From a virus, in the IMG/VR virus record IMGVR_UViG_3300023082_000009, positions 30,880 through 94,879 of that record: a stretch of DNA of 64,000 nucleotides; one strand, given 5' to 3'. Under the pieces are notes generated by a model. That model was not told the DNA's origin and ran no database searches. It saw only the letters and a list, made by a program, of their open reading frames with translations. The translations under genes were made by a program, and so were the position numbers. Positions 31,108-55,490 of this stretch are shown here, one piece after another (within the stretch, counting starts at the first letter, position 1; each line of letters begins with the position of its first letter).

Positions 31108-31419
31108 ATGAGCGACAAGACACCACCAGACAATGTTCGTAGCATCTCCCTAGTCGCGAGTAACTCGCAGATCAAAGGCCCAGTTGCGGAACCCGGCGCA
31201 GCCGTCAAGCACCTGAAAAGCATGATCGAGGCGATTGAGAGCGGCGCCATGCCCGAGCCAGAGTTCGGCGTAACGATGATGGGTTTCACCGACCCTAACG
31301 AAGCGCCGATCCAGATGGAGTTCGGGACCAAGGAAGTACACCCGTACATGATTGTCGGGCTGATCGCGGAGGCCAAGATCCTTACCTTGAGCCCTGCCTT
31401 CGATGCCGACGAAGGTTAA
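31108..31419 (+). CDS. hypothetical protein
   Basis: AAGGAG SD. Confidence 0.65.
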   Translation: MSDKTPPDNVRSISLVASNSQIKGPVAEPGAAVKHLKSMIEAIESGAMPEPEFGVTMMGFTDPNEAPIQMEFGTKEVHPYMIVGLIAEAKILTLSPAFDADEG

Positions 31420-31441
31420 CCCACCGAGAAAGGTAATACCC

Positions 31442-31657
31442 ATGGCAGTAGTAGCGCACTTTGTAGGCGGCCCGCGTAACGGTCGCAAGAACAACCTCCA
31501 GGGCAACGACGAAGCGCCAGACCGCATCGCCGTCACCGCCAAGGAAGCCAAGGCGGTCAACATGAAGCCAGGGCGTTACGAGATCTCCTCCAAGGAAGCG
31601 GACGGCAGCAAAGGTGTCTACCGCTGGGTAACCCTTCAACAGGCCGAGATGGCCTAA
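31442..31657 (+). CDS. hypothetical protein (FVGGP motif)
   Basis: AAGG SD; HFVGGPRNG start. Confidence 0.65.
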   Translation: MAVVAHFVGGPRNGRKNNLQGNDEAPDRIAVTAKEAKAVNMKPGRYEISSKEADGSKGVYRWVTLQQAEMA

Positions 31658-33960: not shown

Positions 33961-35103
33961 ATGAGCCTGACTAGCCGCATCACCGCGCTGGCCCAGGCTA
34001 TCGGCGCGGACATCAAGGCGATCATCGCCGGGAAGAACCGCTTCACTAAGGTGACGGACAAGACCGACTACGTGCCGGTGATCGAGCTGCTCGACTACGG
34101 GGTGCGTCGTGACTACACGATCAGGCCCGTCGGCGACACTCAGGCGGTTTCTCCTGCGGTGCTGAGCGTCTTCACCGTGGACACCATCGACGGCAACTTG
34201 GTCACCGAGGGCCACGGCATTGGCCACCTGGACGTGTACTCGGTCGAGGGCGGTGGTAGCTGCAACCTGATCTTTGGTAAGGAGACCAGGATCGGGTTGA
34301 AGGACGGCAGCCACCTGGAGGAGTTCCTCCTGCACAAGTGGGTCTTCGAGCCGAACGCCACCAACCACGGGACCATCAACATCGTGACCCTGGACGGCCT
34401 GGATGATCAGACCACCAGCGCTCCCTATGTGACGATGTTCCGCAGGCTGTTCGCAGACCCTCGAATGGTCGACTACCTCAACGGCGGTGTGATCCAGACG
34501 CCACGCATCATCGACGGTAACGTCACCCTGCACGACCGGGACAGCGGCAAGGTGATCTTCCTCAACAGCTTCGGCGACGTGACCGTGACCGTCGGTGCCG
34601 ACGTGTCTGACGGGTTCAAAGTGAAGGTCATTCAGGGCACCCTGGGCGGCAAGGTAACGCTGGCATCGGAGAGCAGGTTTGTCCTGGCCAACACGGCCCG
34701 TCGGCAGACCCAGTTCACCTTCGATACGCTGGAAGTGGTGGCCGTGGCTGGCGCCTACCTCGCACTGTCCTGGCTGATGACTCCACCGAGTGTCGTCACG
34801 CCCGACACCGGGGCAGCACGTACCCTGAGCTTGCAGGACGTAGGCAACTACATCCGCATGGGCAGCGGCACTGCGCAAACCGTCACCGTGCCCGCTCAAG
34901 CGACCGTGCCCTGGGAGGGTAACGAGGAGTTCACCATCGAGCAGGCCGGTCCGGGAGCCGTGACCGTCGTGCCCGCCTCGGGCGTAACGATCAACAAATC
35001 AGCAGCTCGCACCACCACCCTGGGCGGCCAATGGTCTGTCGCTACGCTGCGCCGGGTGGCCGAGAATGAGTGGACCTTGTACGGCGGGCTGGCATCCGTC
35101 TGA
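33961..35103 (+). CDS. fibre protein with two tandem C-terminal beta modules
   Basis: N-terminus homologous to the previous gene (ALAQAIG.DIK); duplicated TL...D.G..I....TVTV...Q...G.VT module. Confidence 0.7.
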   Translation: MSLTSRITALAQAIGADIKAIIAGKNRFTKVTDKTDYVPVIELLDYGVRRDYTIRPVGDTQAVSPAVLSVFTVDTIDGNLVTEGHGIGHLDVYSVEGGGSCNLIFGKETRIGLKDGSHLEEFLLHKWVFEPNATNHGTINIVTLDGLDDQTTSAPYVTMFRRLFADPRMVDYLNGGVIQTPRIIDGNVTLHDRDSGKVIFLNSFGDVTVTVGADVSDGFKVKVIQGTLGGKVTLASESRFVLANTARRQTQFTFDTLEVVAVAGAYLALSWLMTPPSVVTPDTGAARTLSLQDVGNYIRMGSGTAQTVTVPAQATVPWEGNEEFTIEQAGPGAVTVVPASGVTINKSAARTTTLGGQWSVATLRRVAENEWTLYGGLASV

Positions 35104-35160
35104 TGGCCTGTGATATGGTGGGATCACCTATCTAGCGGTGGGTGACATGGTGAGTATTTG

Positions 35161-35185
35161 AGGAGTCCTTCGGGGCTCCTTTTTT
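35161..35185 (+). terminator. intrinsic terminator
   Basis: AGGAGTCC-TTCG-GGGCTCCT-TTTTT. Confidence 0.85.
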
Positions 35186-35199
35186 ATTGCCTGTGTATA

Positions 35200-35228
35200 T
35201 TGCAACCCGGCCCTCTTCCCCAGATACT
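35200..35228 (+). promoter_or_regulatory. sigma70-like promoter
   Basis: TTGCAA-17 bp-GATACT. Confidence 0.55.
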
Positions 35229-35234
35229 GGACTC

Positions 35235-35500
35235 ACCAAGCGCGGGAGCGACTCGGGTGGTAGAGCTGACGTTTTGTTGCAGTAGAGCATAGTTGACAGT
35301 CGTGGGCAGGGCCTGCGTACCCGTCAGTTTAGACTGACCGGCAACCTCTCCACCTGGAGCTTGCGCAAACAAGCCCGAGGGCTGGGAACAGAAGGGGAGG
35401 ACTCTTTACGTGGGGCAGCCGGGACCGTTGGAGAACCAACAAGCGTTTGGTGATCTAGAATCCCGAGGCGCTGGCGACAGACCTACCGGTTGCCCCACAC
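35235..35500 (+). ncRNA. candidate structured ncRNA / 5' leader (two domains)
   Basis: No + strand ORF of 60 aa or more; 35240-35265 pairs with 35346-35366; 35410-35422 pairs with 35486-35498; internal hairpins. Confidence 0.5.
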
Positions 35501-35515
35501 TTACAAGGAGCTAGC

Positions 35516-36007
35516 ATGATCCTCGCAGCCACCGGCCACCGGCCTGACAAACTGGGCGGCTACAGTGTACCCCTCGCCACTCTCCGTACTGACCTAGCAA
35601 TGGGTTGGATGGACATCAGGCAAATCGACAAAGGTATCACCGGCATGGCCCTGGGCTGGGACCAGGACTTCGCTCTCGCGTGCTACGAACTCGGAATCCC
35701 CTACATCGCAGCCATACCCTTCGAGGGCCAGGAGAAAGCGTGGCCTGCTGCATCGCAGCGCGTATATCGCTGGCTGATGAACCGTGCCGATGAGGTCGTC
35801 ATCGTCTCGCCCGGCGTGTACTCCCCGGCCAAGATGCTCAAGCGAAACATCTGGATGGTCGACGAGTGCAATCAATTGCTCGCGCTGTACGACGGCAGCC
35901 AGGGCGGGACGGCCCACTGCCTGCGGTATGCCCGCGAATGGCAGAAGGAAGTGACCAACCTATGGCACGTCTATCAAGCCGAGCTGCAAGATGACATTCC
36001 GTTTTGA
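35516..36007 (+). CDS. SLOG family (YspA/DUF1273-like) protein
   Basis: AATGHRPDKLGGY, ITGMALGWDQ, AIPF.GQE..W, RN.WMVD, GGTAHC. Confidence 0.85.
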   Translation: MILAATGHRPDKLGGYSVPLATLRTDLAMGWMDIRQIDKGITGMALGWDQDFALACYELGIPYIAAIPFEGQEKAWPAASQRVYRWLMNRADEVVIVSPGVYSPAKMLKRNIWMVDECNQLLALYDGSQGGTAHCLRYAREWQKEVTNLWHVYQAELQDDIPF

Positions 36008-36009
36008 TT

Positions 36010-36093
36010 TGTGTGGGCATGTGGTCTCCCCTACTAACCATTCTGTGTGGGCATGTGGTTTGCTTAACTAATGGTTCTGTGTGGGCATGTGGT
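36010..36093 (+). repeat. three 16-bp direct repeats, period 34 bp
   Basis: TGTGTGGGCATGTGGT at 36010, 36044, 36078. Confidence 0.9.
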
Positions 36094-36347
36094 TTCCCCA
36101 ACTAGTGGATCACTGGTGAACCAGTGTCCGGCCCGTGTCGTCGGTGGTCTCTGGTGTCGGGCCGGTGGCGCGTCTCTGGTCAGTGGACCGCTGGTCGGTG
36201 GCCGTCAGTGTTGGCGCGGTCTGTGCTAGCCGCCTCGGTGGCGTCCTGGCCTCTGTCCGGCCCGCCCTGGCCCTGTGTTGCGTGCAATTGATTGCACCAG
36301 GGTGCAGGGTTCGCACACCACACACGCACTCTACAGAGGCACACACC

Positions 36348-53373: not shown

Positions 53374-53738
53374 AGGTACCCGCAGGCATCGACGTGAGCC
53401 TGGGCGAGCTGGTCAACAGCATTCGCTTCACCAGCACGGATGAAGATTTGCTCTGCCTCTTCGCCAAGGACTTCGCCCAGCGCCACGGGTTGCAGAAAGT
53501 GGGCGCCATCCGCCTGACCTACTGCCCCATCACGCCGATGCCTGGAAACTTCGAGCCAGACCTCGGTGTACCTAGTGCCCACCTGATGATCCTGGTATCA
53601 CATCACGACTTGGCGTTTGCGGGAGACCGCGAGCCGCTGACCACCACGGTCTACAAGACCTTGACCTTCGTGGACGATAACCCGGAGCGTGAAGCACTGC
53701 CCCGGTACACCTACCACTTCACCGCAGCACTCGCATAA
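53364..53738 (+). CDS. hypothetical protein
   Basis: AAGGAG SD. Confidence 0.6.
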   Translation: MQLKVPAGIDVSLGELVNSIRFTSTDEDLLCLFAKDFAQRHGLQKVGAIRLTYCPITPMPGNFEPDLGVPSAHLMILVSHHDLAFAGDREPLTTTVYKTLTFVDDNPEREALPRYTYHFTAALA

Positions 53739-53748
53739 GGAGACCAAG

Positions 53749-54051
53749 ATGACTTGGTATATCTGGAAATGGTGGCGGCTGGCCCGCTCCCGCAACACGG
53801 GCGTGATCACCGACGGCGACGGGCGCTGGGTGAACATCCTCCCAGGTCTGTACCTGCTGACCGTTCGCCGGGCGGCCTGCCCTTTGGGCGAACCGACCAT
53901 GTACAAGCAGGTCTACCAAACAATGATGGCCGCGAACCACGATCACGCGATCTGCGTGGAGACGGCTATCGAGGCGGTTGAGCAGTACGGTGGTCACCGT
54001 TCGCTCAGCCAAAAGCATCTCAACGAAGTTGTAGAAGAGTGCAAACCATGA
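53749..54051 (+). CDS. hypothetical protein
   Basis: AAGGAG SD. Confidence 0.6.
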   Translation: MTWYIWKWWRLARSRNTGVITDGDGRWVNILPGLYLLTVRRAACPLGEPTMYKQVYQTMMAANHDHAICVETAIEAVEQYGGHRSLSQKHLNEVVEECKP

Positions 54052-55490
54052 TCAACCCCGAAAACCTGAACTGCGCGTACATGGAGGAGCAAGGCTTCTC
54101 CCTCGGCGTGATCCCGGCGCCGCGACCGGACCTAAAGATCCTGCGCGAGGACGAAACCTGGGTGGCCTATGACGAGGCAGGCCTGGAGATGGCCCGCAAC
54201 GACAACTACTGGCTGCTGCGCCGTCTGTACATCGAGTACGGCCAATGCCTGAACATGGACCGCCTGCCAGCATCGGGCGATGTCTGGCGCCACCATAAAG
54301 GCAACGAGTACACCATCGACAAGCTGACCAACCAGTTCAGCGACTACCTGGAGTTCCAGACCCAGGTTGTGTACTTCGGCGCCAACGGTAAGGTCTGGAG
54401 CAAAGGCCTGGGCGATTTCATCGAGAAGATGACTTTCGTGCGCCCAGCAGAGAGCGCAGCCTGCGAGCCTATCCAGGATCTGCACATCCACTCCCTGGGC
54501 ATCAAGGGTATGGTTGCGGGCGAGGTGTACCCCGGCAAGGATCTGGAAGACGCCGCCCAGGCCGACATCACCATGCACATGCACGCCAACCACGGCGGTG
54601 GCAGCGACCACTTCTGGCACGCGATGATCCACGTCAATGCCCCTACGCCTGAGAAGGCTGCCGAGCTGCGTGACATCGTGATGAAGGGCCTGCACATGGC
54701 AAGCAACCCCTTCACGGACCTGTCTTTGGCGAGCATCTCGCCGGAGGACGCAGAAGCACTCGCCAAGGCGTTCGACAGCTCGCTGCCGGGGACCATCATG
54801 GCGATGGAGCCAATCTTGCGCGACAGCCTGGAGTTCGAGGGCCTACTCTGCCAGTACCACTCCGAAGTCTGGGAAGCTGCCGAAAACGAGGACAGCCTGC
54901 TGTCCTACGACGAAGCGGGCCTCAAGACGGCCAAGAAGCTGATCGCTATGTTCCGTGGCGAAGCCGAGTACACGCACCACCTGGACCGCCCGGCTCCGCG
55001 TGATCGCAACGGCGAGCCGTTCGCCATGGACCAATGGTGGCTCCAGGAACTCGCCAAGGTGTCCCTGGGTCAGACGATCTCTGCGGACCTCGTTCGTGCC
55101 TGCGCCGTGGCCCGCAACCTCGCACGGGCGGTGCTGCCGGAGAAGGAAGGCGACCGCCTGTACTACCCGGTAACTGCGCCGATCTCTGCCGAGGGCACCA
55201 CGCTCCTGGAGAAAGGTGAGGTGGTCCTGCCTGCGTGTGACCCACGCTTCGCGGACTTCGACAAGGCACGCGAGCTGCCGCCCCTGATCGTCAAGCTGCA
55301 CGAGGGCGGCCAGCAGATCGCCCAGCAAGCGTTCGACACCCAGGAAGCGACCCACGCGGCCCTAGCGACCCGGCCAAAGCCACCCTGCACCGAGTGCAAA
55401 GGTAGCGGTGGTAGCTGGCTGGCGGGCGCACCGGCACACCCGGACAATTGGACCGAGTGTGATGTCTGCAAGGGCAAGGGGACGTTGTAA
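54048..55490 (+). CDS. mosaic protein with DUF1653-like domain and C-terminal CxxCxGxG zinc finger
   Basis: GDVWRHHKGNEY...VVY....G.VW......F...M; CTECKGSG...CDVCKGKG. Confidence 0.7.
   Translation: MINPENLNCAYMEEQGFSLGVIPAPRPDLKILREDETWVAYDEAGLEMARNDNYWLLRRLYIEYGQCLNMDRLPASGDVWRHHKGNEYTIDKLTNQFSDYLEFQTQVVYFGANGKVWSKGLGDFIEKMTFVRPAESAACEPIQDLHIHSLGIKGMVAGEVYPGKDLEDAAQADITMHMHANHGGGSDHFWHAMIHVNAPTPEKAAELRDIVMKGLHMASNPFTDLSLASISPEDAEALAKAFDSSLPGTIMAMEPILRDSLEFEGLLCQYHSEVWEAAENEDSLLSYDEAGLKTAKKLIAMFRGEAEYTHHLDRPAPRDRNGEPFAMDQWWLQELAKVSLGQTISADLVRACAVARNLARAVLPEKEGDRLYYPVTAPISAEGTTLLEKGEVVLPACDPRFADFDKARELPPLIVKLHEGGQQIAQQAFDTQEATHAALATRPKPPCTECKGSGGSWLAGAPAHPDNWTECDVCKGKGTL

Follow-up and report, generated by a model that had tools for sequence, protein, structure and literature searches.

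Results

A folded RNA leader in front of a SLOG gene

A real folded RNA leader, not described until now, lies in the spacer upstream of a YpsA/SLOG-family gene and is common to a small group of Pseudomonas phages. Its conserved core of about 100 nt (35301-35400), as aligned and folded, is two hairpins followed by a compact three-way junction. The window, by which we mean the whole stretch of 64,000 nucleotides that was analyzed, covers positions 30880-94879 of an IMG/VR virus record that is 94,879 bp long and rated complete, and the source genome is a 95-kb Pseudomonas-type siphophage. The G+C content of the window is approximately 61%, and the + strand carries nearly all of the long ORFs. The spacer is 412 nt long and lies between a tail-fibre-like gene (33961-35103) and the SLOG gene; the best named relative of the former is from Pseudomonas phage PMBT3 (53.6% amino-acid identity), and the SM1/PaMx31 group comes next. 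In this phage, the leader has the SLOG gene as its cargo. The features at the two ends of the leader are as follows.

35160-35190, +: intrinsic-terminator-like hairpin (35160-35181; 9 bp, loop of 4) and a T run, from a scan and the sequence
35190-35228, +: promoter-like site, with CCTGTGTA box 35190-35197, -35 TTGCAA 35200-35205, 17-nt spacer and -10 GATACT 35223-35228
35505-35518, +: Shine-Dalgarno (SD) sequence AAGGAG (35505-35510) and ATG (35516) of the SLOG gene, from the sequence
35516-36007, +: YpsA/SLOG-family gene, 163 aa (Pfam PF06908, E 2.6e-10; 2177 relatives)

A preliminary description of this DNA, made from the letters alone, had called the spacer ORF-free and had proposed a promoter-led, two-domain RNA of about 270 nt on the + strand. 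The GC contents at the three codon positions were 0.59/0.56/0.60 in the spacer, compared with 0.60/0.46/0.84 in the flanking gene, and because the codon-position bias is absent, the spacer is judged to be non-coding. The indels among the spacer homologues, which are not in multiples of three, agree with this. A small ORF at 35410-35514 (34 aa, with GGGGAGG as its SD sequence) was rejected, as codon GC bias is absent there; the SD-like GGGGAGG is not its ribosome-binding site because it forms the covarying 3' strand of the helix Px described below. Taken with the homologues, the analysis shows that 35230-35515 is a non-coding leader of the SLOG gene with a conserved, covarying + strand RNA structure.

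The leader matched no known RNA in the searches made here. ARAGORN detected no tRNA or tmRNA gene in the window, and as a positive control it found the tRNA-Arg and the permuted tmRNA beside the motif of phage SM1. A search of the whole window with Rfam 15 (4227 models) gave no match at the gathering threshold. At E values up to 10, the region 35050-35650 gave four weak, unrelated matches (18.7 bits or less), none of them to a riboswitch, and Rfam on the homologues L007 and L193 gave a spurious miRNA-hairpin match only.

Homologues in a small group of phages

Homologues were searched for using nhmmer and a covariance model, and four lineages besides the window were obtained: L007 (a JGI contig) and L127 (a 104-kb complete phage), both from uncultured phages; L099, a contig fragment; and SM1, a cultured Pseudomonas phage. 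In L007, nhmmer placed the spacer homologue 750 nt upstream of that phage's own SLOG gene, and a 16-bp repeat after the SLOG gene of the window is also present there. L127 and L099 were retrieved from IMG/VR with a 15-mer from the shared block. The covariance model R1, built from the window, L007, L127, and L099, matched SM1 at 54577-54670 (67.3 bits, E 7e-13); the scores of the other members were 106.7 bits for L007, 98.4 for L127, 76.7 (E 1.6e-14) for the window, and 46.4 for L099. Phages FBPa45, PA_L9, PaMx31, and UF_RH6 share 97.5-100% identity with SM1 across the motif.

The closest SLOG relatives, P0002-P0006, are encoded on Logan/ENA assemblies of 95-100 kb. Among them, the SLOG homologue P0005 (236 aa) is wrongly started: residues 1-73 come from reading through the non-coding leader, and GWEQKGRxL is the sole peptide there in common with one frame of the window (35380-35406). 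Because this read-through peptide would fit the motif, with the correct spacing, P0005 suggests a sixth lineage.

Searches elsewhere gave no further members. SLOG synteny in IMG/VR led only to distant relatives from which the RNA is absent, and an IMG/VR search with the tail gene gave no match. The motif was not found by blastn against phage records with the spacer, L099, and L127 as queries, and an over-specific 18-mer gave no match. A GTDB-wide pattern scan gave 55 matches, approximately the chance expectation, none of which scored with the profile (L173 is a coding sequence), and a pattern scan of 401 Pseudomonadaceae genomes gave coding or chance matches only. R1 did not match PMBT3 or the records behind L002 and L003, and a relaxed pattern found no additional family members in IMG/VR. 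In these searches the family is small and phage-restricted, and it includes cultured P. aeruginosa phages.

Fold of the core and its covariation

The elements of the leader from its 5' side to the end of the core are listed below.

35231-35261, +: SL1, 5'-proximal hairpin, CACC 35234-35237 with GGUG 35256-35259 (z only -1.2)
35301-35317, +: SL2, 7-bp hairpin with loop AGG and an invariant GGC/GCC top, from the alignment and folds
35320-35341, +: SL3, hairpin with a conserved GUC/GAC base and a variable top, from the alignment and folds
35342-35344, +: invariant CAA after SL3, from the alignment
35345-35400, +: three-way junction of Px, SL4, and SL5, with junction bases A, G, and AA
35345-35351 with 35394-35400, +: closing helix Px, 7 bp, from covariation
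35353-35380, +: SL4, with GCAA within the loop; longer in the window than in relatives
35382-35391, +: SL5, CUG-GGAA-CAG; the GNRA loop (CUG-GNRA-CAG) occurs in all lineages

Six of the seven Px pairs change on both sides somewhere among the five lineages. The inner four pairs read CUCC/GGGG, CCUC/GAGG, UACC/GGUA, or CGCC/GGCG, and the whole Px of SM1, GGCCACC/GGUGGCC, inverts the outer CC/GG of the other lineages to GG/CC; the four to seven variable bases that flank the invariant blocks thus covary and keep Px paired. The lower pairs of SL2 show a G-C to U-A change in addition to G-U/A-U/G-C exchanges, with ARG or AGU in the loop across lineages. The tops of SL3 in the relatives carry UUCG or CUCG tetraloops, and double changes at the upper three pairs set L007 apart from L127. 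The SL4 loop is GNRA in most lineages (GUAA or GCAA in relatives) and an AUA triloop in SM1. The interior of SL1 differs between lineages, and the UCAC(C)...GGUG pairing is readable by eye in L007 and L127 and was left uncounted. A near-canonical 11-nt tetraloop-receptor-like element (CCUAAG/CAUGG) in the L007 helix was set aside as a coincidence, since by eye it is absent from the other lineages, and the long-range inverted repeats I2 and I3 were rejected because they are neither nested nor conserved.

In the five-lineage alignment A7, which was fitted to the covariance model, 92.8% of the cells are paired and eight pairs have changes on both sides; none of 500 shuffles reached the observed value on any of five measures, and slid controls gave 0-2, although these statistics are underpowered because there are only five lineages, one of them partial and one a group of near-identical sequences. 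The plain MAFFT alignment of four lineages, A5, and the single-sequence folds agree with A7: in A5, 91% of the cells pair and seven pairs have double changes; the observed value was reached by 0/500 shuffles for four measures and by 2/500 for the fifth, and slid controls gave 0-2. When the four full cores were folded singly, the minimum free energy (MFE) structures had one common architecture (ensemble frequency 0.18-0.78). The MFE structure equals the centroid in three of the four, and the SM1 centroid lacks only the two outer pairs of SL3. The window core alone has a z-score of -1.9. Because the core contains eight G-U cells and the z-scores are better on the + than on the - strand in every lineage, the RNA strand is taken to be the + strand. 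The homologues, the covariation present in them, and the concordant single-sequence folds support the proposal of a promoter-led, structured + strand RNA.

The two-domain drawing itself proved half right. Its inner hairpins at 35301-35317 and 35320-35341 are real and were recovered as SL2 and SL3, and so is the 13-bp stem of the second domain (35410-35422/35486-35498; domain 2 z -5.0 on + and -2.6 on -), but the hairpins drawn inside that stem are not conserved in relatives. The stem said to close the first domain (35240-35265/35346-35366) is incompatible with the covarying Px and SL4, which use its bases, and its 3' strand lies partly inside a 16-nt insertion that in the alignment is present in the window alone and absent from relatives. 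Against shuffled sequences, the whole 281 nt has a modest z-score of -2.2 on + and -1.0 on -, in which domain 2 is strong and domain 1 weak (z -1.3). The stretch left as an unstructured linker is the three-way junction, which is the best-supported part of the structure.

A long helix of unrelated sequence beside the ribosome-binding site

The core is followed by a long helix, whose extents in the four full-length copies are given here.

35402-35510, +: long helix of the window, 35410-35422 with 35486-35498 (13 bp, one G-U), enclosing 63 variable nt
Window: 13 bp, z -5.0
L007: 24 bp, z -8.0
L127: 15 + 8 bp, z -5.2
SM1: about 18 of 20 bp, z -3.6

The helix starts 0-7 nt after Px in every full-length copy, and in all four it ends, on the 3' side, 6-22 nt short of the SD sequence of the next gene; its stability reaches -59 kcal/mol. 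The arms and interiors are unrelated in sequence between lineages, yet the arms always pair. Between UF_RH6 and SM1, changes and indels accumulate within the interiors. A lower extension is predicted in the window, where CUCUUU (35402-35407) would pair with the SD sequence AAGGAG (35505-35510) over 6 bp across an asymmetric internal loop; such pairing of the SD sequence is predicted in the window alone. Measured against the yardstick for RNase III of about two turns (roughly 20 bp), the 13-bp upper helix of the window is short unless the lower extension forms.

The helices also bear on whether the leader has any function of its own. It could have been inherited with a mobile promoter cassette, its structure being due to chance or to a role at the DNA level such as an operator, a recombination site, or MITE-like inverted repeats. 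The small size of the family, the position of the cassette at a variable junction beside conserved threefold repeats, and the modest z-score of the whole leader agree with such an origin. However, compensatory double changes occur in several helices, the G-U pairs work on the + strand only, four single-sequence folds share an identical architecture, and the long-helix arms are wholly different between lineages but always paired. Because these observations would otherwise be unexpected, they indicate selection on RNA structure, and we regard a leader without function as highly improbable. MITE-like repeats in particular are unlikely, since the arms still pair although each lineage has different ones.

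Candidate transcription signals at the start of the leader

The terminator reported ahead of the promoter was confirmed by the scan: 35160-35190 has the GC-rich hairpin followed by a U run that characterizes intrinsic terminators, and it ends the tail-fibre-like gene. It is found in the window only, and in L007 and L127 the stop codon leads straight to the promoter-like site without a terminator hairpin. The candidate promoter given in the preliminary description, TTGCAA-17-GATACT, is present, and its layout is kept at the corresponding place in L007 (TTGCAG-17-TATTAT) and L127 (TTGCGG-17-TACATT), which have better -10 boxes; as a sigma-70 promoter, however, it matches the consensus (TTGACA-17-TATAAT) at only 8 of 12 positions and falls under the scan threshold. 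In all three, the leader starts at this conserved promoter-like site (CCTGTGTA, a TTGC-type -35, 17 nt, and a -10 box), directly after the last late gene. We infer that transcription would start near 35235 in the window. No sigma-70-like promoter was seen before the motif in SM1, where a permuted tmRNA gene precedes it instead, and the motif is therefore not universally promoter-proximal.

The pattern CCTGTG-N4-TTGCA occurs only three times in the 95-kb genome (35190, 36272, and 36666), each time on the + strand, ahead of a gene, and inside one 1.5-kb stretch; a shared early-promoter signature is likely. Palindromes of the form TGCAA...TTGCA, perfect or nearly so, overlap early-gene promoter-like sites in the window (36282-36297) and in SM1 (ATGCAAGCGTTTGCAC twice, at about 1411-1426 of L194 and about 3487-3502 of L190), and they look like operators.

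A promoter-proximal position in three lineages, at the heads of transcription units, would suit a processive antitermination signal of the put or nut type, in which the nascent core modifies the polymerase so that it reads through downstream terminators. The phage restriction of the motif and the conservation of its structure through covariation recall put of phage HK022. Nevertheless, no terminator was predicted between the RNA and the downstream genes in the window, and neither a boxB-like element nor an N-like protein was identified. A nut site combines a conserved CGCUCUUA-like boxA with a boxB hairpin; the only boxA-like sequence here, CUCUUUA (35402-35408), occurs in the window alone, and we rejected this reading of it, as the aligned stretch in L007, L127, and SM1 is a helix arm. 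Antitermination by the core is accordingly quite unlikely in our view.

Different genes behind the same leader

Behind the leader stands SLOG in the window, the gene of a small protein in L007 and L127, another ORF in L099, and gp060 in SM1. The preliminary description had raised a riboswitch or ribonucleoprotein connected with SLOG, and this link is not supported because the downstream gene differs between lineages. These differences and the transcription-unit context indicate that the RNA goes with the head of a transcription unit and not with SLOG. In its full form, namely a two-domain RNA that partners the SLOG protein or senses its ligand, the earlier model gains from the SLOG gene standing directly behind the leader in the window and, judging by the P0005 read-through, in one relative. 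With its closing stem in conflict with the core, the motif standing before non-SLOG genes in three other lineages, and two genes separating the leader from SLOG in L007, we consider it hardly tenable.

A riboswitch need not be tied to SLOG, and the three-way junction could be a small-molecule aptamer with the SD-adjacent helix as its expression platform. Like a riboswitch class, the motif has a conserved multi-helix junction with invariant junction bases, followed by a variable, lineage-specific element next to the SD sequence; in the window, pairing of the SD sequence is predicted, and SLOG proteins bind nucleotides according to their family annotation. A covarying, structured core is found in five lineages, but a consistent association with a gene or pathway is not: the downstream genes are functionally unrelated. 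There is also no conserved alternative pairing between core and platform, the long helices are too stable for a ligand-driven switch, and Rfam offers no riboswitch counterpart. We therefore rate a riboswitch as very unlikely.

The small protein that is the cargo of the leader in L007 and L127 belongs to a family with the motif KFKGGPLDGRK / HFVGGPRNGRK (window 31403-31657, L007 408-803, L127 13322-13576), of which the window has a paralogue and for which no Pfam match was obtained. The gene just upstream of the leader in L127 (12294-12995) encodes an alginate lyase (Pfam PF08787, E 8e-40), probably a tail depolymerase, which indicates an alginate-producing host such as Pseudomonas. The cassette of promoter, leader, and cargo adjoins a conserved triple repeat, which SM1 has without the cassette. 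The repeat unit of about 29 bp (CCTGTGTGGGCAT...CCCCTACTA) occurs in three tandem copies in the window (36009-36092), L127 (13569-13676), and SM1 (L190 3180-3280) and in one copy in L007 (805-832), and a CTGGTG-rich stretch follows it in three of these four. This repeat marks a conserved late/early junction, where it may be a phage-specific promoter, an operator, or an origin.

In SM1 (NC_041877.1), the motif lies in a 1.4-kb stretch after PhoH that has no annotated feature (53440-54856; L194 940-2357). There, tRNA-Arg(tct) is followed by a permuted tmRNA in two pieces (RF04321 in Rfam, 118.6 bits), whose tag is ANDTSFDVRLAA; next come a first, degenerate copy of the motif with its own 23-bp helix, the full motif, and gp060. 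Processing must occur in such an RNA-gene island, and one may ask whether cleavage within the long helix frees the core to work in trans as a stable small RNA (a decoy, sponge, or antisense RNA), the downstream gene being a passenger only. The conservation of the core while the downstream gene varies is consistent with this, and long helices are plausible nuclease sites. By contrast, neither a terminator nor a defined 3' end follows the core, and the constant place beside the ribosome-binding site in four lineages suits a role in cis better. We consider a trans-acting small RNA unlikely.

Discussion

We favor, with roughly even confidence, the reading that the leader is a cis-acting expression-control element whose conserved core binds a trans factor, because its layout matches that of the lambda N leader. 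The transcribing polymerase complex, or else a protein of phage or host origin, would dock on the core, and the long helix would loop out a dispensable insert so that the core is placed beside the ribosome-binding site, where the bound factor could gate the first gene at the level of translation or of stability. The helix, which is at least 20 bp long in most lineages, would be a likely target of RNase III, and cleavage would uncouple the core from the message. In the window, translation of SLOG is proposed to be off by default until the helix is cut or opened, because the helix extension hides the SD sequence.

More speculatively, the core may represent a new class of factor- or ligand-binding riboregulator that, at the late/early junction in Samunavirus-like Pseudomonas phages, sets the timing of accessory-gene expression; we put this forward only as a tentative extension. 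The core would then capture the transcribing polymerase or a protein of the phage or its host, a small molecule being the less likely ligand, and the long helix would be a tether controlled by RNase III, so that the whole would be the Pseudomonas-phage counterpart of lambda N-leader logic built from unrelated parts.

Beyond the E. coli models, very little is known, to our knowledge, about structured regulatory RNAs in phages, and the present motif has covariation support and no Rfam counterpart. Cultured lytic phages of P. aeruginosa carry it (SM1, PaMx31, PA_L9, FBPa45, and UF_RH6), so that bench tests could begin immediately. Should a factor-binding leader with an RNase III-type helix be confirmed, it would show how these phages time accessory genes such as SLOG and would constitute a compact, portable expression-control module. 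The motif also marks a spot of cargo exchange, at which one promoter and leader precede different genes, and this spot can guide the search for accessory, possibly anti-defence, genes in this group of Pseudomonas phages.

Three known phage systems invite comparison. The put site of HK022 is a phage-restricted, promoter-proximal, cis-acting RNA in which structure rather than sequence is conserved. It consists of two adjacent hairpins in about 70 nt, whereas the present leader has a junction core and a long helix, no evident downstream terminator, and no sequence likeness to put. The early transcripts of T7 carry long, irregular RNase III processing hairpins in front of genes, and the window helix, with its lower stem, asymmetric internal loop, and upper stem, has a similar general look; unlike the motif, the T7 sites have no conserved core attached, and the upper stem of the window has only 13 bp.

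The closest parallel is the leader of the lambda N gene. According to PMC5725501, nutL is placed approximately 200 nt upstream of N, factor binding at nutL represses the translation of N, and the intervening RNA is highly structured; the same source cites modulation of N repression by RNase III (Wilson et al. 2002). The present leader differs in having no conserved boxA or boxB, no identified N-like protein, and a Pseudomonas host; its core of about 100 nt is made of two hairpins and a three-way junction, and cleavage and repression are proposed only. The order of parts is nevertheless alike in the two leaders: a promoter, a factor-binding RNA site (putative in the present case), a long structured segment, and then the ribosome-binding site of the first gene.
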